From: Patescibacteria group bacterium
GTDB lineage: Bacteria; Patescibacteriota; WWE3; 2-01-FULL-39-13
Direction: 5' to 3'
Assembly (NCBI GenBank): GCA_048499955.1
Contig: JASNYX010000002.1
Span: 4,513-68,512 of the forward strand
DNA length: 64,000 bases
Shown here: in pieces, positions 1,975 through 52,156 of the stretch
Numbering within the stretch: the first letter of the stretch is position 1
Layout: each line of letters begins with the position of its first letter
Position numbers and translations under genes: made by a program
Notes under the pieces: generated by a model
Told to the model about the DNA's origin: nothing
What the model saw: only the letters and a program-made list of their open reading frames with translations
The model's database searches: none

Positions 1975-3672
1975 TTATTCGTTTGTAGCTCTAATTAATT
2001 CCTCTAAACTGGTTAAACCCAACGCCACTTTATCTAAGCCATCTTCAAGCATTGTTATCATCCCATTTTTAATTGCTATCTGAGCAATTACTGAAGCGTT
2101 TTCTTTTTGCACAATGGCCTTACGCACATCCTCATCAACTTCAAGAACTTCGTAAATGCCAATTCGACCTGCATACCCTGATCCGCCACAAATATCACAT
2201 CCTTTGCCTTTATAAACTCGGATTTTGTCTGCGGATTTTGCCCCAAAGTGCTTTTTGATTAATGCAGGGGGAACTTCCTGTGCGAATTTCTTTATTTCAC
2301 CCGGATTTAAATCAGTCGAAACTCTACATTCTTCGCAAATCCTGCGAACTAACCTCTGTCCAACAATCACATTTACTGAAGATGCCACTAGAAATGGTTC
2401 TACTCCCATGTCAAATAATCTTGGAATCGTGGTTGCCGCATCATTAGTGTGTAAGGTCGATAACACAAGATGGCCGGTCATAGCAGAATTGACCGCTATT
2501 TTAGCCGTTTCCTCGTCTCGGATTTCGCCTACAAGAATAATATCGGGATCTTGTCTGACAATCGAACGAAGTCCATTTGCAAACGTAAGGCCAGCCTTGG
2601 GATTAACCTGAATCTGGCTTATATTTTCTAAATCAAATTCGACAGGATCTTCGATCGTCATAATATTTACATCACGAGTGTTTAAATCTTTCAGAATCGC
2701 GTACAACGTAGTTGTTTTACCTGATCCGGTTGGTCCGGTAGCCAGAATCATTCCATAGGGTTTTTTATATGCACTATCAATCTTGGCTAGCGAATCACCT
2801 TTAAATCCGAGATCCTCTAATGTCAGCTGATGAGATTTTTCCGAGAGTAACCGAAGTACGACTTTCTCTCCGCCGGTAATAGGTACGATCGACACACGCA
2901 AATTCAATACCTCATCGAAGATCTTCTTAGAAAGCTTGCCATCTTGAGGAATATGCCTTGCATCTGTTCTCAAACTACTTAAAACTTTTATTCTGGTGAT
3001 TATCTGATCATGAATTTTTATTGGAAGACGAACGATATCATGTAGAACTCCATCAATTCTAAATCTTAGAAGTGAATATGATTCTTCCGGTTCAAGATGA
3101 ACATCTGACGACTTATTTTTGTATGCATATTCGATAATGGTATCAACAATTTTAATAATTGAAGGCTCTGCCGATTTTCCGCCGGCACCTTTAACCTGTT
3201 TGATATTTTGTGCAAGAATATCCTCGAAGGCGAGAATGACATCTTTTGCATATAAATCAACCGCTTCACTGATGTTTTTCTCAGTAGCGAAATGAATTAC
3301 AACATTTTGCCCGGTTTTCTTTCTTAAAAAATTAACTATTTCAAGATTTCCGGGATCTGACATGGCAATATGCAAACCTTTATCGTCTTTTGAAAATGAG
3401 ATTACTTTCCGTTTCCGGGCAACAACCTCCGGAACCAAGTGCAGTATCTCGTCCGGAATATGCATAAATTTCAAATCAATGTATGGAAGTCCCAAAGCAT
3501 TAGCAACAAGTTGTCCGAATTGGCTATCCGGAATAATATTTGCATCCGAGATGTATTTATAAAGAGAAACTCCCTCAGCTCTTGCACTCTTTTGAGCCAG
3601 TGCAAACGTATCCGGAGTCATGATTTTAGTATCAAGAAGGATTTTTTCTATCAGCTGATCGTTTATGAGCAT
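1975..3672 (-). CDS. pilB: Type IV pilus assembly ATPase PilB (GspE family)
   Basis: 565 aa. It has the Walker A motif GPTGSGKTTT and an N-terminal GspE_N-like region. Its length fits PilB rather than the shorter PilT. Confidence 0.9.
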   Translation of the reverse strand: MLINDQLIEKILLDTKIMTPDTFALAQKSARAEGVSLYKYISDANIIPDSQFGQLVANALGLPYIDLKFMHIPDEILHLVPEVVARKRKVISFSKDDKGLHIAMSDPGNLEIVNFLRKKTGQNVVIHFATEKNISEAVDLYAKDVILAFEDILAQNIKQVKGAGGKSAEPSIIKIVDTIIEYAYKNKSSDVHLEPEESYSLLRFRIDGVLHDIVRLPIKIHDQIITRIKVLSSLRTDARHIPQDGKLSKKIFDEVLNLRVSIVPITGGEKVVLRLLSEKSHQLTLEDLGFKGDSLAKIDSAYKKPYGMILATGPTGSGKTTTLYAILKDLNTRDVNIMTIEDPVEFDLENISQIQVNPKAGLTFANGLRSIVRQDPDIILVGEIRDEETAKIAVNSAMTGHLVLSTLHTNDAATTIPRLFDMGVEPFLVASSVNVIVGQRLVRRICEECRVSTDLNPGEIKKFAQEVPPALIKKHFGAKSADKIRVYKGKGCDICGGSGYAGRIGIYEVLEVDEDVRKAIVQKENASVIAQIAIKNGMITMLEDGLDKVALGLTSLEELIRATNE

Positions 3673-6569: not shown

Positions 6570-7805
6570 TCATTGCTTAATAATATCTCTGAGTCCAAAG
6601 TAAAATCCCACCAAAACCACAAACTCAGTAATTCCCGTAGATACGGCAGCTCCAATATAATCATATTGCTGAATAAGATAAAAATTTAAAGCGAGGTTAA
6701 TAACTAAGCCGATAAAATAGACTTTCAGCATAAGTTTGCTCCTATTTTCCAACACCGCAACCCAATTTAGTGGTGCCGTAGCAAAGAAAGGCAACGAACT
6801 TACCATTAAAATAGCAAATGGCAGCCAACTGGGTGACATTTCATTCCCCCACAGGGCTGGAATTGCCCAATATACGACAAGCATCAATATTGGAACACTT
6901 ATAAACCAAAGCACCAAATTATACGCGAACAATTTACGCAGATATTCCCCAAACCGAGCATCTGAATCTTTACGAATATTCACTAATACGGGATAAAAAG
7001 CATTCATTAAAAAAGTCGGGAACACTAGGAATACTTCGAATAGCTTATACGATAAGCTATAAATCCCTACGGAAACACCCGTAGATAAAACAGATAGCAA
7101 AAACTTATCTACACCAAACATTAGTGAGTTAAATAACATTGCGATGCCAATAATATAGGATGATCCTAAAATAACCTTAAAATATTGTGGATCCCACATC
7201 TCATTCCACTTGAAATATTCCCTGACAAGCGAGATAGAAACACCAAGCGCAAGAATCGCAGAAACCAGATACATTTGAACAAGACCCGATATTGTAGGCA
7301 CCTCAACATTAAGGACATAGATTAGGGTTAAAATAAATGAGCTGAAGGCCCAAACCCCGTTTATTAATAGCTGATTCTTATAGGTAAGCCTAGATTGAAA
7401 TATAAGATTCGTACTGTTTATCAATGAAAACGCTAAAATAATCGGCAATCCCCAAAGTGCAGCAGATTTAACCTCGTTTGAATATGGCAAAAACACTAGA
7501 ATTAAGCCGGACATCACAGTTAGTAACGAGCCAAGAACTAACTTGTATCCGACGATTTTGGAAAAATATTTATATGCGTTCTGTTGATCTTCGGCAAAAG
7601 ATTTAGCAAAGTAAACGTTAGTACCAAAGTCGGCAAAAATATAAAATAACGCAATATAATTTAATACGATTGAATATTCCCCCCAGACTTCACGTCCAAA
7701 GGATCTGATGATGATTATGCTGACTAGAAAGGCGAAAATAGAAAGACTATATCGACTAATCAGTTGATATAGAGTATTTAGTGTTATTTTTCTTCGGATA
7801 TTCAT
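6570..7805 (-). CDS. Polysaccharide/oligosaccharide flippase (Wzx-like, MOP superfamily)
   Basis: 411 aa with roughly 12 predicted TM helices and the typical N-terminal region of Wzx/polysaccharide biosynthesis proteins. Confidence 0.65.
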   Translation of the reverse strand: MNIRRKITLNTLYQLISRYSLSIFAFLVSIIIIRSFGREVWGEYSIVLNYIALFYIFADFGTNVYFAKSFAEDQQNAYKYFSKIVGYKLVLGSLLTVMSGLILVFLPYSNEVKSAALWGLPIILAFSLINSTNLIFQSRLTYKNQLLINGVWAFSSFILTLIYVLNVEVPTISGLVQMYLVSAILALGVSISLVREYFKWNEMWDPQYFKVILGSSYIIGIAMLFNSLMFGVDKFLLSVLSTGVSVGIYSLSYKLFEVFLVFPTFLMNAFYPVLVNIRKDSDARFGEYLRKLFAYNLVLWFISVPILMLVVYWAIPALWGNEMSPSWLPFAILMVSSLPFFATAPLNWVAVLENRSKLMLKVYFIGLVINLALNFYLIQQYDYIGAAVSTGITEFVVLVGFYFGLRDIIKQ

Positions 7806-10876: not shown

Positions 10877-10953
10877 TGGTGGACCTGAGGGGATTCGAAC
10901 CCCTTACCTCTTCCATGCCATGGAAGCGCTCTAACCAAGTGAGCTACAGGCCC
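10877..10953 (-). tRNA. tRNA-Ala (anticodon GGC), CCA encoded
   Basis: The reverse complement reads GGGCCTGTAGCTCACTTGGTTAGAGCGCTTCCATGGCATGGAAGAGGTAAGGGGTTCGAATCCCCTCAGGTCCACCA. The anticodon stem CTTCC/GGAAG has loop ATGGCAT (anticodon GGC), and the T-loop is GGTTCGAATCC. Confidence 0.85.
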
Positions 10954-11305: not shown

Positions 11306-14173
11306 TTAATTAAGTTTAAATGAATCTCCGGGAACCAGTTCGGAGGTGTAAGTCTTTTTTCTGATTTCTGCACTATATTTTTCAACGGCTTTAGAAAACT
11401 TCGGCTCGTTAGGATATTGGATTTTAACTTCATGGTTCCATTCGACTCCGGATTCTTTGCGAAGTTTTTGGATTTCTCTGACTAATTCTCTCATGTTGCC
11501 TTCTATTTCAAGTTCTTCACTAACTTCAAGACTTAGAGCTACTGTTACAGAGTTATCGGTTTTTACACTCCAAATGTCGTTAAGTTTAGATTCCTCAAAA
11601 CCAAAAACATTCCTTACGTTTAACTCGTCTTTAACTACCTCAAGAACCTCTGAAGAAAGCTTACTTAATACATCTTCTGAAACCATCAAATTCAGCAAAG
11701 GTTGCCTAACAGGTATATTTTTTTCTTTTCGGATCGAACTGCCCACGGAACAGATTCTGCGTACCAGAACCATTTCCTCATGTAAGGCTTGACCACCTGC
11801 AATTAAATCCTCACTGTATTCAGGATACATATGCAAGTGAATCGACTCTAAATCGTTATCATCCTTTAAATGTTGATAAATCGTCTCAGAGATAAATGGC
11901 ACTAGTGGTGCAGCAGCCTTCGAAAACATCATTAAAACATCATAGAGAGTAGAAAGAGCTTCTTGATCTCCTGAATTTATGCGGTCTCTTGATCTTCTGA
12001 CATACCAATTTGAAAGATCATCAACAAAGGTTTCTACCGGCTCGACCACCTTGGGAACGTTGTATTTTTCGATATTTACTGCAAATGCCTTCACCACCTC
12101 ATGAGCTCTCATGAGTATCCATTTGTCTAACACATTTTTGCTATCAATCTTTTTAGCCGGATCCCATTCATTCAGGTTGGCATAAATGATGAAAAATTTA
12201 GCTGAGTTCCAAAGCGGATTTAATACATTCTTGGATTTATTTCGTAGTTCTGTTTCATCAAAGTTAGCATTATTGCCCACCATTAATGGGGAACCCATTA
12301 AATATAGCCTAAGTGCATCTCCACCTATTTTTTGAAGTATATCTTTGGGGTCAGTATAATTGCCGTAGGTTTTACTCATCTTACGACCGTCATTTCCTGA
12401 AATTACACCGGTAGAAATAACATTATTGAAAGCAGCAGAACCAAATAATGCTGTAGAAAGCACATGCATAACATAAAACCAGGCTCTTACCTGCCCGATA
12501 TACTCCACAATATAATCACCGGGGTAATTTTTCTGGAATTTTTCTTTATTCTCAAACGGATAATGTATCTGAGCATAAGGCATCGAACCTGCTTCAAACC
12601 ATGAATCTAAGACTTCAGGTCTACGGCGATATTCTTTTCCTTCTTTTTTGATAACAATTTCATCGATATAAGGTCTATGTAAATCTTTGACTTTCTGACC
12701 TGATAACTCTTCAATCTCATTTATAGATGAAACAACAATGCGATCCCCATCTTCAGATTCCCAAACCGGCATAGGGGTAGCCCAAAACCTCGTTCGTGAA
12801 ACGCACCAGTCAGGCGCCTGCTCGATCCCTTTTTTGAACCTGCCTTCTTTTACATGTTCAGGCATCCAATTAATTTCTTCATTATTTGCGTAAAGCTGAG
12901 GTTTTAGTTCAGATACTCTTAAAAACCATGAAGTTTGAGCTCTTTGAATTAGAGGAGTATTACACCGGTCGTGATAGGGGAATCTATGCAAAATTCTCTC
13001 ATTTTTGAATAATAGACCTCTTGTTTCAAGGTCTTCTAAAATGTACTTATCGGCTTTTTTATAAAACATTCCGGAAAAAGGATTTTCTCCATTGTTACCT
13101 GCAATAAATTTGCCTTCATCATCAACCGTAAGCATCAACGTTAATCCATAATGATTTCCCATCTCAGTATCGACTTCTCCAAAACCCGGAGCAGAGTGTA
13201 CGATTCCCGTTCCTTCTTCCATCGTAGCCATGTTATTGTATGAATACACCTGAAACTCACCGTCTTTATGAGCATAAAAGGTATATATTGGCTCATACTT
13301 CAAACCTAGTAAATCTTTACCCGTAAATTCAGCCAAAACGTTATGATCTTTACCAGAAAACACAAAATCAATCCTGGCAGTACCGACTACATATTTTTCT
13401 GATTCTGATTCGACGAGAGAATACTTTTCCTCTTCATTTACTACTAGTGCCCGATTAGATGGCAATGTCCATGGAGTAGTGGTCCACGCTAAGATGAAAG
13501 CATCCTTAAACTTACCGTCTGACGTGACTTTAAATTTAACAGTGACAGCAGGGTCTTCAACTTCTTTGTAAGAGTTATCCATGGCAATCTCAAAGTTTGA
13601 AACCGGGGTTCCACAGGTTGTGCAATATAAAGAAGTTCTGGTTCCTTCATAAATCAAATCTTTGTCATACAAAGATTTAAATGCCCACATAACTGATTCC
13701 ATATACGATTGATCTGTCGTTTTATAAGAGTTATCCATGTCAACCCATCGTCCGATTCTGTCGATATACCATTTCCATTCTGCTGAGATCCTCGAAGTGT
13801 ATTCATAGCAAGCTTCCGTAAATTTTTCGAGACCGAATGTTTCGATATCACGTCTATTTGGAATACCAAGTTCCTTTTGAACTTTATTCTCTACGGTTAA
13901 GCCATGAGCATCCCATCCCCATACACGTTCAACTCTTTTGCCTTTCATCGTCCAATACCTGGGAATCAGATCTTTAGCGATTGACCCAAGTAAATGTCCA
14001 TAGTGCGGTAATCCGGAAATAAACGGGGGGCCATCGTAAAAAACATACAGATTATCTTGAGATCTTTGTTTGACGGATTTCTCAAAAATACGCTTATCGT
14101 TCCAGAAAGATAATACTTCTGACTCAAAATCCGGAATATTCTGTTCCTTTGGATTCTTAAATTTTTGGCTCAT
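11306..14173 (-). CDS. ileS: Isoleucyl-tRNA synthetase (type 2, eukaryote/archaeal-like)
   Basis: HIGH-region PPFISGLPHYGHLLG and KMSKS-region GRKMSKTYGNY are present, with a large editing-domain insertion. The probable start is ATG at 14173 (MSQKFKN…), downstream of the T-box terminator, rather than the ORF-track start at 14263. Confidence 0.95.
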   Translation of the reverse strand: MSQKFKNPKEQNIPDFESEVLSFWNDKRIFEKSVKQRSQDNLYVFYDGPPFISGLPHYGHLLGSIAKDLIPRYWTMKGKRVERVWGWDAHGLTVENKVQKELGIPNRRDIETFGLEKFTEACYEYTSRISAEWKWYIDRIGRWVDMDNSYKTTDQSYMESVMWAFKSLYDKDLIYEGTRTSLYCTTCGTPVSNFEIAMDNSYKEVEDPAVTVKFKVTSDGKFKDAFILAWTTTPWTLPSNRALVVNEEEKYSLVESESEKYVVGTARIDFVFSGKDHNVLAEFTGKDLLGLKYEPIYTFYAHKDGEFQVYSYNNMATMEEGTGIVHSAPGFGEVDTEMGNHYGLTLMLTVDDEGKFIAGNNGENPFSGMFYKKADKYILEDLETRGLLFKNERILHRFPYHDRCNTPLIQRAQTSWFLRVSELKPQLYANNEEINWMPEHVKEGRFKKGIEQAPDWCVSRTRFWATPMPVWESEDGDRIVVSSINEIEELSGQKVKDLHRPYIDEIVIKKEGKEYRRRPEVLDSWFEAGSMPYAQIHYPFENKEKFQKNYPGDYIVEYIGQVRAWFYVMHVLSTALFGSAAFNNVISTGVISGNDGRKMSKTYGNYTDPKDILQKIGGDALRLYLMGSPLMVGNNANFDETELRNKSKNVLNPLWNSAKFFIIYANLNEWDPAKKIDSKNVLDKWILMRAHEVVKAFAVNIEKYNVPKVVEPVETFVDDLSNWYVRRSRDRINSGDQEALSTLYDVLMMFSKAAAPLVPFISETIYQHLKDDNDLESIHLHMYPEYSEDLIAGGQALHEEMVLVRRICSVGSSIRKEKNIPVRQPLLNLMVSEDVLSKLSSEVLEVVKDELNVRNVFGFEESKLNDIWSVKTDNSVTVALSLEVSEELEIEGNMRELVREIQKLRKESGVEWNHEVKIQYPNEPKFSKAVEKYSAEIRKKTYTSELVPGDSFKLN

Positions 14174-14217
14174 GATAAATAATAAATTAAATAACCGGTA
14201 CTCTAGACAATAGACAA

Positions 14218-14270
14218 TAAAAAAAGCCCTTGTTTTCCCACCAGAATAAACTGATGAAAACACAAGGGCC
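14218..14270 (-). terminator. Intrinsic terminator of the ileS T-box leader
   Basis: An approximately 13-bp stem (GGCCCUUGUGUUUUC / GGGAAAACAAGGGC) is followed by UUUUUUU, about 45 nt upstream of the ileS ATG. Confidence 0.75.
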
Positions 14271-14405
14271 TTGAGTTCAAGACGGTACCACCTTGGATTC
14301 TACTCATTACGGCTATAACGGGCCTGACCGAAAGGTTCTACCCCCTAAATGGGATCTTCCTTTAACGTGAAGCTGAGCTTCTTGCGGTTGATTTCCGCTC
14401 TACGC
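14218..14405 (-). promoter_or_regulatory. T-box riboswitch leader controlling ileS (transcription attenuation type)
   Basis: Minus-strand RNA: T-box sequence AAUCCAAGG-UGGUACC-GUCUUGAACUCAAGGCCCUUGU. Helix A1 is CCAAGG/CCUUGU and the 7-nt bulge UGGUACC can pair with tRNA 3'-ACCA (discriminator A, as in tRNA-Ile). Helix A2 is GUCUUG-AACU-CAAGGC. A competing terminator is GGCCCUUGUGUUUUC…GGGAAAACAAGGGC plus a U7 tract. A possible -10 TATAAT lies at 14415-14420. Candidate Ile specifier AUC is at 14390-14392, but this is not securely placed. Confidence 0.8.
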
Positions 14406-14580
14406 ATTAAGACTATTATATAGCAAGTTCAAACGGTTGAGAATCATTAATATCGGTTTATAGAGATGTGTGTATATGCTTTAATTGTTATTAATGTTTC
14501 ATTTTTCAACACATCCTAAACATTTTAGCCTCTTCCATCTGAGTTTTAGTTCAGGATTCAAAAACTCTCTACCGCTATAT

Positions 14581-15738
14581 ATGACCAACACTCTTAGGTC
14601 ATTTTCAATTTCTCTGATAGGTCTATTCATACCAATATATATATTTCAAATAGCAGAGAAGTTCCCTACGATCACTGAGAACTCAGTAATTAACAGCATA
14701 TTTTATGTCCTGCTTTTTTATCTAATCAGATCAGCAGCAACCATCGGTTTTATGCCTAGGGTAGTAAACGTTATCTTTGGTTATTTGAAATTTAATGGGT
14801 CGATTATGATTGCAAATGTATTACTAGGAATCGCTATTTACTTGCTGATTCTGGCGGAAACACACATTTGGGCACTGGTCTTTGCCCCAATACTTTTAGC
14901 ACTTAACACAACGCTTTACTGGATACCATTTCATACTTACTTTGTTAGAAACTTTAAGTCAGCTACGGGCCATTTCGGAACGAATACAGGTATTAGACTA
15001 TTTCTGGCAGGCATCGCGACTGCTGCAGGTCCGGCATTGGGAGGAATCGTAGTTAAAAATTTTGGTTTTCAGTCACTCTTTTGGCTTGGAATTGTCGCAC
15101 TCATATTATCGGGATTTCCTATACTTTTTGGACTTCCGGAGCATAACCACGGGAAGCACAATGTTATGCAAATTGTGAAGAAATATTTCTTTGATGCAAA
15201 ACACAAATACAACACCATCGCACAAATGTGTATGGGTATTGACGGTGAACTTTACGCTATCTTCTCTCCGCTATTGTTATTTCTTATTTCATCGGACATC
15301 ACAAACGTTGGTTATATAACATCAATCTCAGTTTCACTCGCAGCAGTATTCACACTAGTTGTCGGGAAAGTCGTAGACAAACAAGGGCCAAAGAAAATCC
15401 ACAAAGTCGGATTGATTTTTAATTCATTTTTCTATCTACCGCGTGTTTTCTTAAATCAAAGCTGGTTACTTTATCTGATTGACGTATTCGACAAAATAAA
15501 CGGATCATTCTTAGCAGTACCACTACTTGCAGCCACATACGAGAGAGCAAAAACCAATGAAAACGAATCCGATTTCATGATTTATCGCGAGTTTATGATC
15601 CATCTTGGAATATGTCTGGCGATAGTGCTACTTATGTTTATTATTCTATTAACAGCAAATTGGAGGCTAGTGTTCCTTTTATTAGCGATTGTTTCACCGT
15701 TAACATATCTTGTGAATGTTAAAAATAGTAAGCAGTAA
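14581..15738 (+). CDS. Polytopic membrane protein, transporter-like (MFS-like topology)
   Basis: About 12 predicted TM helices. The probable start is MTNTLRSF at 14581; the ORF-track start at 14485 would overlap the ileS promoter region. No diagnostic motif was recognised. Confidence 0.5.
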   Translation: MTNTLRSFSISLIGLFIPIYIFQIAEKFPTITENSVINSIFYVLLFYLIRSAATIGFMPRVVNVIFGYLKFNGSIMIANVLLGIAIYLLILAETHIWALVFAPILLALNTTLYWIPFHTYFVRNFKSATGHFGTNTGIRLFLAGIATAAGPALGGIVVKNFGFQSLFWLGIVALILSGFPILFGLPEHNHGKHNVMQIVKKYFFDAKHKYNTIAQMCMGIDGELYAIFSPLLLFLISSDITNVGYITSISVSLAAVFTLVVGKVVDKQGPKKIHKVGLIFNSFFYLPRVFLNQSWLLYLIDVFDKINGSFLAVPLLAATYERAKTNENESDFMIYREFMIHLGICLAIVLLMFIILLTANWRLVFLLLAIVSPLTYLVNVKNSKQ

Positions 15739-15959: not shown

Positions 15960-17414
15960 CTATTTCTCACTGGTTTTCTTTAAAAACTGCCCAAGCCAAC
16001 TGGAATTAAGAGCTTCTTTCTTTTTACGTGCTTCACTTCTTTCCTGTTCTTTACGCTTTCGCTCATCTTCTTCAGAATCATCCGCTTGCACAGACTCAGT
16101 TTTTGTTTCAGATGCCGAACTACCACCGGAAGACATTTTCCCGAAGAAACCTCCGAATGTAGCCCCTGCCGACGGTTTTTCTTCTTCATCTTCAATCTGA
16201 TTGTAAGTTGCCGGCTCTGCATCTCTTGATTCAACCGGCTTTTCGATTTCTTCCATTTTTCTTAATTCGGCCTGCATCTGTTCGTAATTAAAACTTCCAT
16301 ATTCTTCGGTACCTTCTCTATCTTCAATCAAACGCTCATCAAATACCTTGCTTTGCTGTTGGCTATCCTCCTGAATCGTATCGTATCTTGAATCTATCTG
16401 ATCTATAACATCTTCATTTTTTATAGTTGGTGCTTCTAAAGGAAGTGCTGACGGCTTAAAATCGGAATCGAAGCCGGTCGCAATAACAGTAACCTTTACT
16501 CCTTGTATTTCGTTATTAATATTAGCTCCAAAAATGATATTAGCGTTATCATTTGCAGAAGCTGAAATTAAGGAAGCGGCAGCATTAACTTCATACATTG
16601 ATAGTGAATCATCTCCGACAATATTAATAAGTAGTCCTGTGTAGCCTTTAATATCAGTATCAAGAAGTGGTGAGTTGATGGCACCTCTAGCAGCTTTCTC
16701 TGCCCTATTCTCTCCCTCGGCAAACCCTATTCCCATCAAGGCTGATCCGGCATTGTGCATAATGGATTTCACATCGGCAAAATCAACATTAACTAGACCG
16801 GCTGAGTTAATAAGATCAGAAATACCTTCAACGGCTTGTCCAACAACCTGATCTACAATCTTAAACGCATCTCTTAAAGGCATTGAGTCATCAACAACAT
16901 CAAGTATCTTTTGATTTGGAATTACAATCAATGCATCAAGCTTATCCTTAAGTTCTCTTACTCCCTGATCTGCCTGATTCATCCTTCTTTTACCTTCAAA
17001 ATCGAAAGGTTTTGTTACAACTCCAACAGTTAGTGCACCAAGTTCCTTAGCGGCTTTGGCGATAACAGGAGCAGCACCGGTACCGGTTCCGCCACCTAGT
17101 CCGGCAGCAATAAACACCATATCGGCACCTTGTAAATGTGTTTTTACTTCTTCAAGTGATTCTGTTGCTGATTCAAATCCTATCTGAGGATCAGACCCGG
17201 AACCGAGTCCGTGTGTCCTTTCAGGTCCAAGTTGTAGTCTTATTTGAGCTTTCGAGTTATTCAAAACCTGCAGATCGGTATTCATGGAAATGAATTCCAC
17301 ACCATCGATCTGGTTATACTCGATCATGGAATCAACAGCGTTTTGACCGCCTCCTCCTACTCCGACTACTTTGATTTTTGCAAGATTTGTTGATTTGGGT
17401 GCAATGTAAGCCAT
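15960..17414 (-). CDS. ftsZ: Cell division GTPase FtsZ with a long charged C-terminal tail
   Basis: It has the tubulin signature GGGTGTGAAP, an N-terminal VVGVGGGGQNAV motif, and a T7 loop. An approximately 150-aa low-complexity acidic/basic C-terminal extension follows. Confidence 0.95.
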   Translation of the reverse strand: MAYIAPKSTNLAKIKVVGVGGGGQNAVDSMIEYNQIDGVEFISMNTDLQVLNNSKAQIRLQLGPERTHGLGSGSDPQIGFESATESLEEVKTHLQGADMVFIAAGLGGGTGTGAAPVIAKAAKELGALTVGVVTKPFDFEGKRRMNQADQGVRELKDKLDALIVIPNQKILDVVDDSMPLRDAFKIVDQVVGQAVEGISDLINSAGLVNVDFADVKSIMHNAGSALMGIGFAEGENRAEKAARGAINSPLLDTDIKGYTGLLINIVGDDSLSMYEVNAAASLISASANDNANIIFGANINNEIQGVKVTVIATGFDSDFKPSALPLEAPTIKNEDVIDQIDSRYDTIQEDSQQQSKVFDERLIEDREGTEEYGSFNYEQMQAELRKMEEIEKPVESRDAEPATYNQIEDEEEKPSAGATFGGFFGKMSSGGSSASETKTESVQADDSEEDERKRKEQERSEARKKKEALNSSWLGQFLKKTSEK

Positions 17415-20847: not shown

Positions 20848-22131
20848 TTACCTTCTGTGAGACTCGGAAATACTCCTACTTACATTTAGCACAAGCCCGA
20901 GCCCCAGAAGCATAAACAGAGTAGACGATCCCCCATATGATACTAAGGGAAGCGGTACACCTGTTAATGGCATTATACGCACCATAGAAGTGAGATTCAT
21001 CAACGCTTGTATGGCAATCCAAATTGTAATCCCTTTTACTAATAATGAGCTAAAATTATCTTGTGTTTTCCTAGCTATATAAAAACACCTACCGATAAGC
21101 AATACAAATAGGGAAATTAAAAACAATGTCCCTAGGAACCCTAGTTCTTCGCCAACAACCGCAAAAATTGAGTCTCCTATTACTTCAGGTAGATACGCAT
21201 ACTTTTGACGAGAATTTCCAAAACCAAGCCCCCAAAAACCTCCGGATCCCAATGCAATCATTATCTGTCTGATGTGATATCCAGCACCAAGCTTATCAAT
21301 ATCATCGGGATTCAATAGCGTCTGTATTCTTTCCATACGATACGGCGAGCTTAATGCATATATTGTCGTGGCAATTCCAATTGGGAATAGATACAAAAAC
21401 AAAGTTTTTAGTGGAGCATACGCAAAATAAGCTACAGATATTAGGATTCCAAAGGTAATGAAAGCTGTGGTGAAATCAGGCTCCACTGCAATCAATCCCG
21501 CAATCGCTAAAATCGCAACCAGATAATTTCTAGTAAGTATTGATATGTCTTTTCCTCCGACAAACGACTTACTCACAACCTGAAAACTATTCACTCGAAA
21601 GAATCTTTGTCTGTTATTACCTCTAAAATTAAAGATACTGGATAAAACCGACTGAAACGGAAGCTTCTCATGACCGGTAAAAAATGCTGCCCCGAAAATT
21701 ATTCCCGCTAGCTTAGTAAATTCGCTAGGCTGAAAGCCTACTATCCCAATCATGGGAATTCGAGGAAGCGGATCAGGGTTGAGATATAACCAACGCCTAG
21801 CTCCATAGATTTCAGGAGAAAATGGAGTCGGGAGAAGAATAAAAGCCAAAAAACAAATTGCTAATCCTATCAAAAAACCTGCGTATTTCTTTACAAGCTC
21901 CAAATTAATTACGGACATCACAAAACATCCGATAAGGCCAAGACAGATCCAACACGCTTGAAGTATTAAGAATCTATATTTTGTTCCGAAGTTCTGTTCC
22001 GCGTAAAAAGCCGAGGCATCAAAGACCATCAATACGCCGAAAGTTAATAGAACCAGCATTACCACAAGTAGGAATTTATCAACTTCTCCAATGCCTTTAG
22101 CTGCTAGAATGGTTTTTCTGTTACTTATCAT
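20848..22131 (-). CDS. ftsW: SEDS-family peptidoglycan glycosyltransferase FtsW
   Basis: 10-TM protein with the conserved C-terminal motif LPLVSYGGSSTLFMLLGLGLVLNVSR. Confidence 0.9.
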   Translation of the reverse strand: MISNRKTILAAKGIGEVDKFLLVVMLVLLTFGVLMVFDASAFYAEQNFGTKYRFLILQACWICLGLIGCFVMSVINLELVKKYAGFLIGLAICFLAFILLPTPFSPEIYGARRWLYLNPDPLPRIPMIGIVGFQPSEFTKLAGIIFGAAFFTGHEKLPFQSVLSSIFNFRGNNRQRFFRVNSFQVVSKSFVGGKDISILTRNYLVAILAIAGLIAVEPDFTTAFITFGILISVAYFAYAPLKTLFLYLFPIGIATTIYALSSPYRMERIQTLLNPDDIDKLGAGYHIRQIMIALGSGGFWGLGFGNSRQKYAYLPEVIGDSIFAVVGEELGFLGTLFLISLFVLLIGRCFYIARKTQDNFSSLLVKGITIWIAIQALMNLTSMVRIMPLTGVPLPLVSYGGSSTLFMLLGLGLVLNVSRSISESHRR

Positions 22132-24759: not shown

Positions 24760-26469
24760 TTAATTTGATTGCGGCCTATCCGGTAGCAAACCATAATAGT
24801 CTGCGATATCTTCTGCAATCCGCATCCATAGCGGTACTGCAGTTTCAGCAGCATATCCACTAGGATTACTGGGTTCTTCCAACCTTACAATCATAACGAA
24901 ATTTTTATAAGTTGGGAAAAAGCCTACAAAGGTTGCATTTGTACGATGTGGGGCGTACCCACCTCGCACAGGAATCTGTGCTGTTCCGGTTTTTCCGGCG
25001 ATTAAATATTTTTTCGACACAAAATATTTTGCTTCTCCACCGGAAACCGTTTGAGTCAACATCTCGACCATAGTTTTTGCTGTGTTTTCGGATATTGGTC
25101 GATCGAGTATTTCCGGCTCCACTTTTATTACCTTATCAGGGGATATAATCTCTGAAACTAAATGAGGTCGCATAAGCTTGCCTTCGTTTGCAATCAAAGC
25201 AAATGAGGAAAGTACCTGTATCGGTGTAACCGAAATGCCTTGGCCAAATGAAGCATTGGCGAGCTCGATGTCCTTGAGTGGAAACTTCTTGTGCATAAGC
25301 CCTAATTCCTCACCCTCAAGATCAATGTTTGTGTATCGCCCTAAGCTAAAGTTGTTAAAATATTTGAAAAGGGTTTCTGAGCCGACCTTTTGACCTACCC
25401 AAGCAATCGCCAAATTATTGGAAAGCTGTAGTACCTGAGTCATATCAATAACACCATGGTTTTTCCCATCCCAGTTATTTACTTTGTATCCGGAAAACTC
25501 TCTAGGTCCTGTGTCATTATAAGTAGTCCCCAGATCAACCGCACCTAAATCAATTGCCGCCGCCATAGTTATAGCTTTTATCACTGAACCAGGTTCATAA
25601 ACTGACGAAATAATATCGTTTCGAACATCATCTAGGTTTAAATTTCGTTTATCAGCGGAAGGGTCAAACGGTGGATACTTTGCCATTGCAAGAACTTCAC
25701 CGGTTTTAGGATCCATTACTACTACATTCCCGCTTAATGCATTGTATCGGTCAACTCCATCTTTTAGATGATTCTCAACAATAAATTGAATATTCCTATC
25801 AATTGTTAAAACAAGGTCACTTCCATCTACCTCGGGAAGCTTTTCGGCACCACCCCATAAAATTGGGTCACCTATCGCTGATTTTTCAGTTAAGGTCCAC
25901 CCATCATGACCTTTTAGATATCCATCATAATACTGTTCCAGTCCGTAATACCCAACTTCGTTACCCGCCTTGTCTCTTCCAATAAATCCTAAAGCGTTCG
26001 ACAACATTGTGTGCTCCGGATAAAAACGGGAATATGCTTCCTCGAAGCGTATCTCAGGATTCTCAGAAAGCATCGCCTCTTTGATTTCCCAGTTAACCGG
26101 AATCGGAATTTTCACAACTTCTCCCTCTAGATTAGTAGCGTTAATTATCTCCATTTGGGAATCGGTATAATGCTTCGATAGATATTTTTTGAATTCGGAT
26201 AAATCTTTATACCCCGACATCAGGAATCTAGGATAATAACTGGTTATAGAAAATACTACAGGGTAGCGATCTGATGTATAAATAGTACCTCTTTTTGCGG
26301 GAATTTTATTACTAAACCAATGTTGCTCCCTAGCCTGAGCTTTGTACTTAGAGGCGTTAATAACTTGAATTTGAAACAACCTTGAGACGACAAGAAAAAA
26401 TAAAAAGAAGACTACTAACTGGACGAGCTTATCTCTATCCATAAAGATTTTTGGCCATATTTTCTTCAT
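24760..26469 (-). CDS. ftsI: Penicillin-binding protein, FtsI-type transpeptidase
   Basis: It has an N-terminal TM anchor, a dimerisation domain, and the transpeptidase motifs SVIK, SNN and KTGT. Confidence 0.9.
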   Translation of the reverse strand: MKKIWPKIFMDRDKLVQLVVFFLFFLVVSRLFQIQVINASKYKAQAREQHWFSNKIPAKRGTIYTSDRYPVVFSITSYYPRFLMSGYKDLSEFKKYLSKHYTDSQMEIINATNLEGEVVKIPIPVNWEIKEAMLSENPEIRFEEAYSRFYPEHTMLSNALGFIGRDKAGNEVGYYGLEQYYDGYLKGHDGWTLTEKSAIGDPILWGGAEKLPEVDGSDLVLTIDRNIQFIVENHLKDGVDRYNALSGNVVVMDPKTGEVLAMAKYPPFDPSADKRNLNLDDVRNDIISSVYEPGSVIKAITMAAAIDLGAVDLGTTYNDTGPREFSGYKVNNWDGKNHGVIDMTQVLQLSNNLAIAWVGQKVGSETLFKYFNNFSLGRYTNIDLEGEELGLMHKKFPLKDIELANASFGQGISVTPIQVLSSFALIANEGKLMRPHLVSEIISPDKVIKVEPEILDRPISENTAKTMVEMLTQTVSGGEAKYFVSKKYLIAGKTGTAQIPVRGGYAPHRTNATFVGFFPTYKNFVMIVRLEEPSNPSGYAAETAVPLWMRIAEDIADYYGLLPDRPQSN

Positions 26470-28270: not shown

Positions 28271-28807
28271 ATGGAAAGTGAAGCGGGATTTAAAAAAAAT
28301 TTCATACTCAAGAAGTATGATCGGTGTATGCCTTATAAGAACAAACAGAAAAAGCTCTTACCTAATGCTATTTATCATGTTTATAATCGCGGGGTCGAAA
28401 GAAAATGCATCTATGAAAACTCCAGTGACTATAAATTTTTCATCAATCTCATTGAAAATCTTTTAATAAAGCATAGTAAAGATATTAAACTCCTAGCATT
28501 TTGTTTAATGCCCAACCACTTTCACTTGCTAGTTAAGCAAAAAGATAAATACGGCATGATGAAATTTATGAGAGATTTAAGCTGTAGGTATACCTATTAC
28601 TTTAATCGGAAATATGCCAGATTTGGCCCTTTATTCCAAGGCACATACCGAGCATCCATTATCAAGGATCAGCGACAATATGCAGTCACCAGAAATTACA
28701 TACATCAAAATCCGGTAGATATTTGCAGTGATGTGAAGAAATACCCGTACTCAAGCTATAAACATTATCAGGGAAAAGTTCATTTGGAATTCATCAAAAC
28801 GGTCTGA
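28271..28807 (+). CDS. IS200/IS605-family Y1 (HuH) transposase-like protein (TnpA / RAYT-like), single copy
   Basis: HuH motif MPNHFHLLV and catalytic Tyr region RNYIHQNPV are present, with the N-terminal YHVYNRGVE core. The probable start is MESEAG at 28271. Its 3' end overlaps the glyS 3' end convergently by 28 nt. Confidence 0.75.
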   Translation: MESEAGFKKNFILKKYDRCMPYKNKQKKLLPNAIYHVYNRGVERKCIYENSSDYKFFINLIENLLIKHSKDIKLLAFCLMPNHFHLLVKQKDKYGMMKFMRDLSCRYTYYFNRKYARFGPLFQGTYRASIIKDQRQYAVTRNYIHQNPVDICSDVKKYPYSSYKHYQGKVHLEFIKTV

Positions 28808-30144
28808 CCCGGGGTGCGGATCTGCTCCATGGTATCCCGATCCCGAACAGTAACCGTACCATCCTCTAAAGTCTGATAGTCAATAGTAATACATTTTGGA
28901 GTACCTATTTCATCCTGTGAATAATACCTCTGGCCTATATTTCCACGATCGTCCCAGATAACTCGTAGGCCTCTCGTTATTAGAGAGTTGTAAACTTCTC
29001 TGGCTTTTGCAACAAGTTCAGGTTTGTTCTTAACCAATGGGAAAACTGCCGCCTGATATGGTGTCACAGATTCCGGCAAGCGTAAAACCACACGATCTTT
29101 TTCTTCATAATAAGCATTATCAAGCAACATCAGTAAATTTCGATTTAGCCCCCAGGTACTTTCCATTACATGCGGTACATAAACTTCGCCTGTAAAGGGA
29201 TCTCTATACTCAAGCTTCTGACCTGAATGCTTTGCGTGAGTCGAAAGGTCATAGTCAGTTCGATAGTGGAGCCCGCTTACTTCATCGAATCCCCAATCAA
29301 ATTCGTACTGAATATCAGAGGCGGCCTTAGCGTAAAAGATTAGCTTCGCGTGGGGCTTCCAACGGATTTTTTCTGAATCAATACCTAAAACATTGATATA
29401 CCAATCTTCTAAATGCTTGGCCCATTCGTCCCAATACTTTTTCCACTCTGACTCACTTGCAGGAGGCTTAATGAAATATTGGATTTCCATTTGTTCAAAT
29501 TCAATAGTTCTGAAAATAAACCTCCCTTTTGTTACTTCATTTCGGAAAACCTTTCCATGTTGAGCTATTCCAAAGGGAACCTGAACTCTAGTTGAATCCA
29601 ATACATTTTTAAATAATACGTACATTCCTTGTGCAGTTTCAGCTCGTAAAAATAAGTCCGAACGACTGGTTTCGGTTGAACCGAGCTCAGTTTGAAACAT
29701 TAAGTTAAATTTACGAACTTCACCAAGTTGATTCCCATCGGGCGATTTAACTTTATTGTCTATAAGATACTTTTGAATGTCTTCGATACTCATTAAATCA
29801 GTGTCCAGTTCGACTCCGGATTTTTTTGCATGATCTTCAACAAGATGATCGGCTCTCCACCGTCGATTGTTAACAGTATCTTCTACCATGAGGTCACTGA
29901 ATCCCTTTGCGTGTCCGCTCGCCTCCCAAACTGTGGGATGCATGAAAATTTGGCTTTCAATTCCTACGACATCGGATCGACTTCTAACAAATTTGTTCCA
30001 CCATAGATCTCTAAGCAGTTTTAGCATTTCCACACCTAATGGCCCATAATCATAGACATTCGCCAATCCACCATAAATTTCAGATGAAGGATAAATAAAA
30101 CCGCGCCTTTTACAGAGGGAAACAATTTTTTCGAATTTTGACAT
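28780..30144 (-). CDS. glyQS: Glycyl-tRNA synthetase, dimeric class II (GlyQS type)
   Basis: N-terminus MSKFEKIVSLCKRRGFIYPSSEIYGGLANVYDYGPLGVEM and class II motifs. It is 454 aa. Confidence 0.92.
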   Translation of the reverse strand: MSKFEKIVSLCKRRGFIYPSSEIYGGLANVYDYGPLGVEMLKLLRDLWWNKFVRSRSDVVGIESQIFMHPTVWEASGHAKGFSDLMVEDTVNNRRWRADHLVEDHAKKSGVELDTDLMSIEDIQKYLIDNKVKSPDGNQLGEVRKFNLMFQTELGSTETSRSDLFLRAETAQGMYVLFKNVLDSTRVQVPFGIAQHGKVFRNEVTKGRFIFRTIEFEQMEIQYFIKPPASESEWKKYWDEWAKHLEDWYINVLGIDSEKIRWKPHAKLIFYAKAASDIQYEFDWGFDEVSGLHYRTDYDLSTHAKHSGQKLEYRDPFTGEVYVPHVMESTWGLNRNLLMLLDNAYYEEKDRVVLRLPESVTPYQAAVFPLVKNKPELVAKAREVYNSLITRGLRVIWDDRGNIGQRYYSQDEIGTPKCITIDYQTLEDGTVTVRDRDTMEQIRTPGQTVLMNSK

Positions 30145-30871: not shown

Positions 30872-32926
30872 CTATTCGAGGGTAACTTCTCTGTCGGAGT
30901 TTAAGATAAAATCTGTTCCAATTCCATCAAGACTTACTCGATATGGATCATTTGTTACACCGGACTGTTTCTGAACCAAGATCTGGTAATTATCAAGATC
31001 AATGGTATCAGGTAACTCATACACATATGTAATAACCAGATCGGTCTCTTTCTGTTGTCTTGTAAAACTTTCGATATATGTTTTATCCACAGCCTGGTCG
31101 TCAAAAGAAGCTCCTCGCGGATCTTGGCCGTCAGAAGCAGTAACAGAGAGCATCTTCGATCCTAAGGGCACATAGACCCTCATGTAGGCGTTATAAAAGC
31201 AGCATGGGTCGATATTGTACCAATCGGGTCTTTTAGGATTTTTAATTGTTACACTAACTGTGCTAATTTTCTTTCCATCTTGTACTTCAATTTTCTTGTC
31301 GACTTCTTGAGTTACAAATCCGGGGAGAGTCCAATCAGCTTTTCCTGCACCATAGTTACTTCTGCTAACGTGCAAGTAATCCTGAGTGTTGGGAATCTTG
31401 CGGATTTTTCCTGAATAGCCTAGATTATCAAATGCTAACGCAACATTTGCATCAAAAGCATAAATCATGATGTCTTTGTTACTGAGTGAGTCTAATATGA
31501 CCCTAATTACAGCCAATAAATTTGTGGCTTCAGAGGTGTACATCTTAGTCAAAATACTCTGACCCAGATACTTAATAATCTCCTTACGTCCGATTGTTTG
31601 AGCCAATTTACCTCCGGCGATAACTTCAAGCTCTTTAATAACATTATCAGCACTAAATTCTGTAACAGGAATAGTTACGAATGTGCCATCATCTCTTCTT
31701 ATGGAATATTTTTGCGTATTAACCGGACCGACAGCCTTAAGGATATCAACTGCTAAATCGTTGTTGATCTGCATAACCCCATCGATATCTTGAGGAAGAG
31801 AACGATCTTTTCTCCAGAACTGTGTTAATAAATCATTAACAGCTAGTGGAAAATCAACATTATTACTCGTAGCATCTCTGGCATACCATCTAAAAGTATT
31901 CCCCGACAAATATAAATAATTTCTCAAGTGATAAGGCACGTTTCTATTAACCAATAGCGAGTTACCGGTTCGATCTCCTTCATCTATAAAGTAAGTATCT
32001 ATCGAATAAAAAATCTCAGGTATACCTTCTTTAAATTCGACACCAACTATATAGGTGTTAAAACCGCCGGACATACGCATCTCATAGTTATTTGCCATCA
32101 ATATTAAATATCTCTTTGGAGTGTTTAAACCCATAAATTCAGGAACAGCATTAAAGAATGCTTCCATCTGAGGAGCTTTATTCGCAACCTCTTTGGATAT
32201 CGATTGTATTTCCAAAACATACTTTCTGGCATTTGTGTCAGTATCAATTCCTAAATACGAAAAATACCATGGAAGACTTGTCGGATAATCCGAAGGATCA
32301 ATTTCAGTAAGCTCTTGATCAATCTTCTTCATTCGTTCTGATATCTCAGTGACTTTCGGAGAAAATTGCGGCATAAGACGCATAAGCTTTATTACACGAT
32401 CCTGTGCAGGCAGTTGTGATGCTTCTGACTCCGCTGTTTTAAATCCTAAATCCACTGCGTGAGGCTCAAGTATTTCAATTACTAGATTTCCTAAACTGAC
32501 ACTTTCCTCTGCAACCTTAATTAAATGCTGGCTATCATTGTAGTAAATTTCAGCTTTGGGGAGCTTTCTTAAATTTGAAGCATTCGCCTCGTAAGCAATC
32601 TTGAAGTCACTCAAACCGGTCTCAATATCAGATAAACCTCTCTTCATTTGTTCCAGATCTAAATTTTCCAAACCTTGTCTAACTGTATATGTAGAATCCT
32701 TTAGCTTTTTACCTTGCTGCATAATTGCCAGTGCCGGTCGTACAAAGAAGAAGTAGCTAATACTCAAGAATAAAACACTCAAAGCTAGAAATGACCCCAA
32801 AACAATAAAGAGAACTTTTTTGTTTACCTTGATTTTAGGGAAACTGAAAGATGCTTTTGTTTTTAACGGTTTGAAATTATTTGACGACTGACCGGGTTTA
32901 TTTTTTCCAAATGCAAATCTATCCAT
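30872..32926 (-). CDS. Large membrane-anchored extracytoplasmic protein (possibly DUF4012-like)
   Basis: 684 aa, with N-terminal cytoplasmic basic segment and one TM helix. The rest is predicted extracytoplasmic. It lies directly downstream of the priming sugar transferase gene. The family assignment is a tentative recollection. Confidence 0.5.
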   Translation of the reverse strand: MDRFAFGKNKPGQSSNNFKPLKTKASFSFPKIKVNKKVLFIVLGSFLALSVLFLSISYFFFVRPALAIMQQGKKLKDSTYTVRQGLENLDLEQMKRGLSDIETGLSDFKIAYEANASNLRKLPKAEIYYNDSQHLIKVAEESVSLGNLVIEILEPHAVDLGFKTAESEASQLPAQDRVIKLMRLMPQFSPKVTEISERMKKIDQELTEIDPSDYPTSLPWYFSYLGIDTDTNARKYVLEIQSISKEVANKAPQMEAFFNAVPEFMGLNTPKRYLILMANNYEMRMSGGFNTYIVGVEFKEGIPEIFYSIDTYFIDEGDRTGNSLLVNRNVPYHLRNYLYLSGNTFRWYARDATSNNVDFPLAVNDLLTQFWRKDRSLPQDIDGVMQINNDLAVDILKAVGPVNTQKYSIRRDDGTFVTIPVTEFSADNVIKELEVIAGGKLAQTIGRKEIIKYLGQSILTKMYTSEATNLLAVIRVILDSLSNKDIMIYAFDANVALAFDNLGYSGKIRKIPNTQDYLHVSRSNYGAGKADWTLPGFVTQEVDKKIEVQDGKKISTVSVTIKNPKRPDWYNIDPCCFYNAYMRVYVPLGSKMLSVTASDGQDPRGASFDDQAVDKTYIESFTRQQKETDLVITYVYELPDTIDLDNYQILVQKQSGVTNDPYRVSLDGIGTDFILNSDREVTLE

Positions 32927-51730: not shown

Positions 51731-52156
51731 ATCTTTAGAACTTTCATTTGAATCCATATACAACATATAGACTATAATAAATATATATATGAATCAACGC
51801 CCAAAGAAGCTAGTCGAAACAGGCATAAACCCCGGAACATTAAATGAGGCTTCACCAATCTTTAAAATGATTCCTTTAGAAGGCGAAATCGAAGCCATTT
51901 CCAAGGCCTTTTCAAAATCATCGCCAACATCTACTACAGAATAAAATGTGTACTCTAAATGCCAGAAGTACTCTATCTAGTTTTTGATCCAATTAAAAAT
52001 CTACTTCTAATCACTTGTAAAAACATTATTCCGATGTCATCAAACTGATCAATTAAGAGAGAATGATCTTGAGCGACTATGCGTTTAATTCTGCACCATA
52101 ATCTTGTTTCCAATACCCCAGATTTAAATTGCAACCATTCATGATAATAGCTACCG

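Follow-up and report, generated by a model that had tools for sequence, protein, structure and literature searches.

Results

The ileS locus and its leader

The DNA analyzed here, henceforth referred to as the window, is a stretch of 64,000 nt from contig JASNYX010000002.1 (positions 4,513 to 68,512, forward strand; assembly GCA_048499955.1) of a Patescibacteria group bacterium of the WWE3 lineage. On its minus strand, the window carries an ileS gene for isoleucyl-tRNA synthetase (IleRS), and the leader of this gene, which has the organization of a T-box riboswitch, is the subject of the present work. The leader spans ~190 nt, from roughly 14408 to 14219 (−). The transcript start is predicted from the sequence at ~14408, 3–5 nt ahead of the first helix, and relatives have a −10-like box about as far from the closing stem. 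The whole T-box block series is present in the window in the order AUC-A loop, AAGA, GUAGAA, CGG..CCGUUA, GAG and GGUGGUACCG. Coordinates of the gene and of all leader elements are provided in Table 1.

An initial annotation of the window had proposed a T-box-type switch ahead of ileS, a TATAAT box upstream of it, a eukaryote-like type-2 IleRS and a host resembling the Candidate Phyla Radiation (CPR). Each of these proposals was confirmed. The motif, the A1 and A2 helices and the terminator are all present on the minus strand, and the TATAAT box is found within a promoter-like site. The encoded IleRS scored 650–680 bits against eukaryotic cytoplasmic, T. thermophilus and IleRS2 structures versus 308–325 bits against type 1 (PDB matches). 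Among 185,579 species genomes, the 80 loci with the closest IleRS were without exception from CPR/Patescibacteria metagenome-assembled genomes (MAGs), the nearest being WWE3-like with 57–69% identity.

Table 1 Elements of the ileS leader and the regulated gene in the window (minus strand throughout; kcal/mol values are predicted energies).
Element	Position	Strand	Description
Promoter-like site	14415..14443	−	TTCTCA 14443–14438, 17-nt spacer, TATAAT 14420–14415; 10/12 matches, consensus match only
Stem I domain, three-way junction	14365..14405	−	Closing stem GCGU 14405–14402 / ACGU 14368–14365; minimum free energy (MFE) fold and grammar parse
Specifier hairpin	14384..14398	−	GCGG-AAAUCAA-CCGC; 4 bp, 7-nt loop 14394–14388, AUC 14392–14390, purine A 14389
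Extra hairpin	14369..14381	−	GAAGC-UCA-GCUUC; between Stem I and closing stem, at the place of the kink-turn (K-turn) in most relatives
Stem II	14331..14363	−	Lower helix AAAGG 14363–14359 / CCUUU 14335–14331; R1 alignment
Stem II S-turn	14358–14354 and 14341–14336	−	AAGA(U) and GUAGAA; R1 alignment
Stem II upper hairpin	14354–14342	−	UCCC-AUUUA-GGGG; R1 alignment
Stem IIA/B pseudoknot	14311..14330	−	IIA CGG 14330–14328 / CCG 14321–14319; IIA loop UCAGGC
IIB and F-box		−	IIB GGC 14324–14322 / GCC 14313–14311; F-box CCGUUA 14321–14316
Single-stranded linker	14296..14310	−	GUAAUGAGUAGAAUC, 15 nt; conserved RAG motif (GAG 14305–14303) and purine run AGAA
Antiterminator (discriminator core)	14263..14295	−	A1 CAAGG 14295–14291 / CCUUG 14267–14263, 5 bp; −9.8 kcal/mol
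T-box bulge	14290–14284	−	UGGUACC, 7 nt; between A1 and A2
A2 hairpin	14283–14268	−	GUCUUG-AACU-CAAGGC
Intrinsic terminator	14219..14270	−	~21-bp hairpin 14270–14226, U7 14225–14219; −25.0 kcal/mol
ileS (regulated gene)	11306..14173	−	955 aa, ATG 14173–14171; TIGR00392 827 bits

The 5′ half of the leader

Inside the closing stem, the Stem I junction runs in the order AGA, specifier hairpin, AA, extra hairpin. The AUC triplet that the initial annotation had guessed to be the specifier sits in the terminal loop of Stem I and is the best candidate, backed by the concordance between loop codon and downstream gene described below. Most relatives carry a K-turn-like GUUUGA...GA where the window has its three-way junction. 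The window-type junction was found in at least 10 independent leaders, including L088, L089, L101, L114, L123, L131, L167 and L179 (L numbers denote related loci and contigs). In these junction-type leaders the closing stems covary (AACGC/GCGUU, GCGUU/AACGC, AGCGC/GCGCU, UCCGU/ACGGA) and the extra hairpins are unrelated in sequence. A class-I Stem I, with its K-turn, internal specifier loop and distal platform for the tRNA elbow, is absent from the window; only ~40 nt lie between the predicted start and Stem II.

The leader had also been described as apparently lacking Stem II. This proved wrong, as the segment 14363–14311 contains both Stem II and the IIA/B pseudoknot; the leader instead lacks Stem III and the distal half of Stem I. 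Across the family of related leaders defined below, the lower helix of Stem II is 99% paired with covariation at 5/5 pairs, the AAGAA and UAGA motifs are invariant or nearly so, and the CGG/CCG of IIA is invariant. A linker hairpin in the MFE fold of the window, CGUUAU-AGCC-GUAAUG, competes with the pseudoknot, has no counterpart in relatives and was treated as spurious.

Linker, antiterminator and terminator

The distance from CCG to GGUGGUACC is only 26 nt in the window. No Stem III helix was found between the pseudoknot and A1 in the window, and none was predicted or covarying at that place by RNAalifold across 100 family members. In L001, L073 and L079 a hairpin is inserted precisely after AAG/GAG, where the window has none.

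The bulge and the A2 hairpin of the discriminator were located exactly as first annotated. Helix A1 is likewise present, with 5 bp rather than six, since the claimed sixth pair is a C·U mismatch. The UGGU of the bulge is complementary to a tRNA 3′ end ACCA. In the same 100 members, A1 is 93% paired and A2 is 99% paired, with double-sided changes at 8 of the 9 pairs.

For the terminator, the annotated overlap with the 3′ strand of A1, the U7 tract and the distance of ~45 nt to the ATG were all borne out. The hairpin is longer than had been written, as CAUCAG/CUGGUG also pairs, and its length explains why a simple terminator scan missed it. The 5′ arm of the terminator, GGCCCUUG (14270–14263), doubles as the 3′ strand of A2 and A1, which makes terminator and antiterminator mutually exclusive. 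The U7 tract ends 45 nt ahead of the ileS ATG and leaves the start region untouched, and no sequestration of a Shine-Dalgarno sequence was found in the window leader. Among 113 distinct family members, 89 carry a hairpin that ends at a U-run and whose predicted energy is −8 kcal/mol or lower, and about 15 have no U-run.

In the terminator state, the MFE prediction for 14261–14296 (−) folds the 5′ half of the T-box into a hairpin of its own, CAAGGUG-GUAC-CGUCUUG, which buries the UGG of the bulge. In this model the hairpin, which was not seen in relatives, would act as an anti-antiterminator.

Covariance-model searches

The initial annotation had called the element a textbook T-box and had named a search with the Rfam model RF00230 as its check. 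Across the whole window, RF00230 gave no match at the gathering score; in 14100–14600, none was obtained at E ≤ 10 with lax filters either. This result formally counts against the annotated T-box, and together with the missing Stem I platform and Stem III it makes the description as textbook untenable. We judge the result to be a false negative, because RF00230 models class I. The authors of TBDB state the same of RF00230 and needed a custom model for T-boxes with truncated Stem I, which was run on Actinobacteria and class-I hits only (PMC7778990). Permissive searches of relatives with RF00230 gave 68.6 bits for L079, 54.5 for L049, 53.0 for L073, 47.3 for L043, 37.0 for L042 and 30.8 for L001, against a cutoff of 93, with E-values from 8.5e-13 to 4e-3; no match was obtained for L056 in the permissive run. 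Since RF00230 finds relatives at significant E-values, the leaders are homologous to T-boxes, and since these scores fall below the Rfam T-box threshold, standard genome annotation misses them.

A covariance model, R1, was built with explicit structure from 14 non-redundant metagenomic leaders, excluding the window and all genome loci. Plain MAFFT alignments of 11, 45 or 24 leaders had been inconsistent in structure outside the conserved core, and a grammar parser and the homogeneous 14-sequence seed were therefore used; a naive hairpin finder for Stem I was too noisy. The 100% pairing returned by the parser is not evidence, because the parser forces Stem I, the closing stem, A1 and A2 to pair. 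R1 returned a single match in the 64-kb window, at 14261–14389 (−) with 68.7 bits and E ~8e-17, and no second T-box. The specifier hairpin falls just outside this match because R1, which models the K-turn class, placed its own Stem I on the extra hairpin. By the same token, the extra hairpin occupies the position of Stem I in the simple class.

Distribution and covariation of the family

Of the 80 CPR loci, nine have the motif TGGTACC 64–164 nt upstream of ileS, and one further locus has it at 289 nt upstream. When R1 was applied to the 80 loci, it matched exactly these 10, with E-values from 6e-9 to 7e-24. The CPR leaders share a series of ordered blocks, namely a short hairpin with an AUCA loop, AAGAA, GUAGA(A/C), CGG-N6-CCGU, AAG/GAG and GGUGGUACC. 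A pattern search for this layout, restricted to a short linker, yielded at least 120 metagenome contigs, and among the matches listed an IleRS-like gene directly follows the leader in 100 of 120 contigs. An initial view that the class is confined to CPR was dropped, as few metagenomic contigs encode an IleRS more than 65% identical to that of a named CPR genome. Some of these contigs carry another IleRS type at about 31–35% identity, and most members are not assignable to CPR.

Covariation was evaluated in 100 members aligned to R1. An alignment fitted to a model favors the modeled structure, and the controls therefore consisted of 500 shuffles and of slid registers. Standard pairs occupied 96.1% of cells versus 66.3% in the shuffles, and changes on both sides of a pair were counted in 853 cells versus 266; 0 of 500 shuffles reached the observed value in either case. 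Sliding the 3′ partner by 1–3 columns lowered pairing to 33–50%. Double-sided changes were present in every helix except the invariant IIA. RNAalifold, run independently on the R1 alignment, returned the same 27 pairs and none besides. For the IIB pseudoknot helix, pairing was 83% versus 72.5% in shuffles and compensatory cells numbered 36 versus 13.6, with near-zero values in slid registers.

Concordance of the loop codon with the downstream gene

The loop format NNAUCA(N) is common to about 95 ileS leaders. The minimal layout was also found with specifiers other than Ile, in L081, L083, L086, L090, L096, L107, L110, L117, L136, L154, L156, L163, L194 and L200. A GUC loop precedes ValRS in L086, L107 and L200. 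A GAC loop precedes AspRS (L081, L156) or an archaeal-type phosphoenolpyruvate carboxylase (L154). An AAC (Asn) loop lies ahead of AspRS in L117, L136 and L194, which points to a non-discriminating AspRS that charges tRNA-Asn as well. The agreement of loop codon and downstream gene is the strongest evidence for function short of experiments. In L096, which also has a GUC loop, the leader is separated from a ValRS-like gene by an adenosine deaminase gene.

Variant leaders

Two CPR ileS leaders, L042:2792-2992 and L049:2759-2960, have a Stem III and a longer pseudoknot spacer. In place of the terminator design, they carry a helix CCUCUAUAG/CUAUAGAGG over a Shine-Dalgarno-like AGAGG/AGAG beside the start codon. 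These leaders look translational, which suggests that transcriptional and translational versions both exist within CPR.

A subclade of nine contigs (L093, L106, L115, L125, L144, L149, L151, L168 and L173) shows, by eye, GGGGC or GGGAC before a U-tract about 60–90 nt past GGAUGGUACC. This segment pairs with a linker GUCCC upstream of A1, so that the apparent terminator encloses the whole antiterminator, with no competition for the 3′ strands of the latter. A switch of the L093/L106 type may free or sequester the RAG linker.

The T-box of L079 (2552-2721), from Moraniibacteriota, has the loop CUAUCU and ends 289 nt before the annotated ileS match. The gap reflects either a wrongly set start or an intervening small gene or long spacer. 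L043, L060 and other closest loci have a CPR-type IleRS and leader and are labeled "uncultured Gammaproteobacteria", "Pseudomonadales" or, once, "Bathyarchaeia"; such labels seem to be taxonomic errors of the source records.

Genomic context of the window

The nearest T-box-bearing relative of the window by IleRS is L001, whose leader belongs to the subclass with a K-turn and Stem III. A tRNA-Ala(GGC) gene is located just downstream of ileS both in the window (10877-10953 (−)) and in L001 (8119-8195). This conserved synteny links the window to L001, which is OZ246395.1, a 945-kb chromosome labeled "Saccharibacteria".

The window also encodes a dimeric-type GlyRS at 28780-30144 (−), with ~730 nt between it and the next large open reading frame (ORF; at least 330 aa), upstream to 30871. 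The initial annotation had raised the question of T-boxes at other aminoacyl-tRNA synthetase genes; none was found ahead of this GlyRS gene by Rfam or R1. Other genes of the window, at 1975-3672, 15960-17414, 20848-22131, 24760-26469 and 50012-51766, encode a PilB/GspE-type pilus ATPase, FtsZ, FtsW/RodA, a class-B penicillin-binding protein and a radical-SAM protein. The radical-SAM protein gave a partial match to HpnJ, at 159 bits versus a 578-bit cutoff. Four large ORFs, at 6570-7805, 30872-32926, 36264-37544 and 48300-50015, had no NCBIfam match at E ≤ 1e-15.

Discussion

Proposed mechanism

Homology to T-boxes, conserved and covarying helices, a link between loop codon and regulated gene, and a mutually exclusive terminator and antiterminator were observed for the ileS leader of the window and its family. 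On these sequence-based grounds, the leader is very probably a functional T-box riboswitch, most likely specific for tRNA-Ile(GAU), that controls ileS by transcription attenuation. From the same observations we infer tRNA binding, sensing of the charging state and a transcriptional read-out.

In the proposed mechanism, the anticodon of tRNA-Ile would pair with the AUC that an ultrashort Stem I presents in its 7-nt terminal loop. In general, bacterial tRNA-Ile has a GAU anticodon complementary to AUC, and its A73 is complementary to UGGU. The S-turn of Stem II would clamp the short codon-anticodon duplex sideways, and the IIA/B pseudoknot would position the S-turn, as in actinobacterial ileS T-boxes. 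With uncharged tRNA, pairing of the 3′ ACCA with the UGGU of the bulge would stabilize the weak antiterminator (A1 and A2) and allow RNA polymerase to read through into ileS. With charged tRNA, or none, the far more stable terminator would form and transcription would stop at U7.

Several points weigh against a functional switch of this kind. RF00230 is silent in the window, as described above. No tRNA-Ile gene was found in the window or in 60 related contigs. The closest IleRS relatives, the WWE3 loci L002-L019, have no T-box by R1, and the element is therefore sporadic and dispensable in the lineage. Position 14354 of the leader is a U at the S-turn equivalent of A39, where at least 90% of relatives have an A; the G in place of A opposite this U may be a compensatory change. 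Stem III, absent here, has been described as "indispensable for function" and as an integral part of the aminoacylation sensor (PMC7583486), and transcriptional T-boxes generally need a long Stem I platform for fast tRNA capture (PMC7583486). A switch without Stem III and the platform might thus be weak or dependent on a helper.

Alternative explanations

The last of these points leads to the alternative that survives best, in which the RNA is T-box-like and not self-sufficient, with a protein or a second RNA contact replacing Stem III and the platform. According to the literature, tRNA is bound poorly by an antiterminator that lacks Stem III and is captured slowly by a short Stem I, slow capture being ill-suited to a co-transcriptional decision; the extra hairpin in the Stem I junction of the window could be viewed in the same light. 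No candidate partner was found, however, and the neighbors of ileS in the window (an MFS-type transporter, FtsZ and tRNA-Ala) are unrelated. The RAG linker and the purine run, which carry the function of Stem III, are moreover retained. We consider such assistance unlikely, and it would refine the explanation by a tRNA-Ile-sensing T-box rather than exclude it.

A decaying T-box relic, which no longer senses tRNA and leaves a constitutive partial terminator ahead of ileS, would account for the absence of an RF00230 match, for the missing Stem III and Stem I platform, for the U at the A39 equivalent and for the nearest WWE3 relatives managing without a T-box. Decay is difficult to reconcile with a reduced layout that persists across 10 CPR genomes and at least 120 contigs, under heavy compensatory change and with invariant functional motifs, and in which the loop codon follows the regulated gene. 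In the window itself all helices are intact, UGGUACC and AUCA are perfect, and the weak antiterminator precisely overlaps the strong terminator, which would not be expected of a relic. This explanation is therefore improbable.

Action on translation, or on translation and transcription together, is suggested by the 5′ half of the leader, which belongs to class II, a type so far known to be translational. It is also suggested by L042 and L049, where a helix covers the Shine-Dalgarno-like AGAGG/AGAG and no convincing terminator design is present, and by the family members devoid of a U-run (about 15/113). The window differs from these cases in that its alternative helix, a hairpin of 21 bp, has U7 immediately after it. 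As this hairpin ends 45 nt before the ATG, with the start region untouched and no Shine-Dalgarno sequence sequestered, a translational read-out in the window is very improbable.

A chance motif, or attenuation through a leader peptide from the 20-codon ORF at 14345-14407 (−) (AUG at 14407, MRRAEINRKKLSFTLKEDPI and stop, two Ile codons, overlapping Stem I and Stem II), has a negligible likelihood, given the E ~8e-17 from the independent model R1, an AUG that lacks a ribosome-binding site, coincides with or precedes the predicted transcript start and is absent at this place in relatives, and double-sided helix changes that do not preserve the peptide; the ORF is probably not translated.

Significance of the family

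The T-box of the window, which probably senses tRNA-Ile, has a reduced architecture, in which a class-II decoding module is combined with a terminator in the absence of Stem III and which is missed by Rfam. With slightly less than even confidence, we tentatively propose that such leaders constitute an uncatalogued "minimal" T-box class that is common in CPR/Patescibacteria and metagenomes, has an ultrashort Stem I and a terminator but no Stem III, and serves Ile, Val, Asp and Asn. A literature search of incomplete coverage found no published link of T-boxes to CPR, Patescibacteria or Saccharibacteria, and a literature search of the same incomplete coverage found no prior description of the reduced architecture.

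The main value of these results is in the family rather than in the single locus. T-boxes are a model system for the recognition of one structured RNA by another, and more than 100 natural leaders that lack both the platform and Stem III, yet covary and have a terminator, offer a direct test of claims about essential modules. If the proposed class is real and works unaided, the long Stem I of transcriptional T-boxes and the Stem III of every discriminator would be dispensable. It would also represent the smallest natural tRNA-sensing switch, at about 150 nt before the terminator. The constructs are very small and suited to structural and kinetic work. The leaders further place T-box control of aminoacyl-tRNA synthetases in CPR. 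This part of the bacterial tree is large and, for the most part, uncultured, with few regulatory RNAs known.

Comparison with known T-boxes

The closest known counterpart is the actinobacterial class-II ileS T-box (M. tuberculosis, N. farcinica; PDB 6UFG, 6UFM; Sherwood et al. 2015, cited in PMC7583486 and PMC7778990), and the positions were compared by published residue numbers rather than by sequence alignment. In the ileS T-box of N. farcinica, the codon is at 16–18 and is followed by A19, the S-turn is formed by G37-A38-A39 opposite G67-U-A69-G70-A71, and the F-box is 87-CCGUCA-92. Counted from the closing stem, L106-like relatives of the K-turn class have AUC at 16–18, A at 19 and GAA at 37–39, and the spacing from UAGA to the F-box in all members equals that of N. 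farcinica. Because the positions of codon, S-turn and F-box coincide, the decoding half follows the ultrashort Stem I plan of Actinobacteria and is not glyQS-like.

The leader of the window resembles the actinobacterial class-II elements in its AUC and A in the terminal loop, its very short Stem I without an elbow platform, the GAA/GUAGA S-turn of Stem II, and a compact IIA/B pseudoknot with the F-box CCGU(U/C)A. The RAG/GAG linker, the UGGNACC bulge, the A1 and A2 helices and ileS as target are shared as well. In the M. tuberculosis element, a key role in sensing is given to the GAG linker just 5′ of Stem III; the window retains GAG at 14305–14303 and the purines that follow, despite the missing Stem III. 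The literature ties the ultrashort Stem I to translational control, and the window differs from the actinobacterial elements in having a terminator and U7 rather than a helix that sequesters the Shine-Dalgarno sequence. Further differences are the lack of Stem III, the three-way junction with an extra hairpin in place of the K-turn, the CPR/Patescibacteria host with its type-2 IleRS, and the additional use of Val, Asp and Asn codons within the family.

With class-I T-boxes (RF00230, e.g. Bacillus subtilis tyrS), the leader of the window shares the logic of specifier-anticodon and UGGN-NCCA pairing, a weak antiterminator and a strong terminator that share 3′ strands, Stem II, the IIA/B pseudoknot and, by inference, a transcriptional read-out. 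The class-I features absent from the window are the long Stem I, the K-turn, the internal specifier loop, the AG bulge, the distal double-T-loop platform and Stem III. The initial annotation had likened the leader to that of glyQS, and the two do share a short leader and a transcriptional terminator. In modular composition they are opposites: the glyQS T-box has a full Stem I and Stem III without Stem II and the pseudoknot, whereas the window has Stem II, the S-turn and the IIA/B pseudoknot without the Stem I platform and Stem III.

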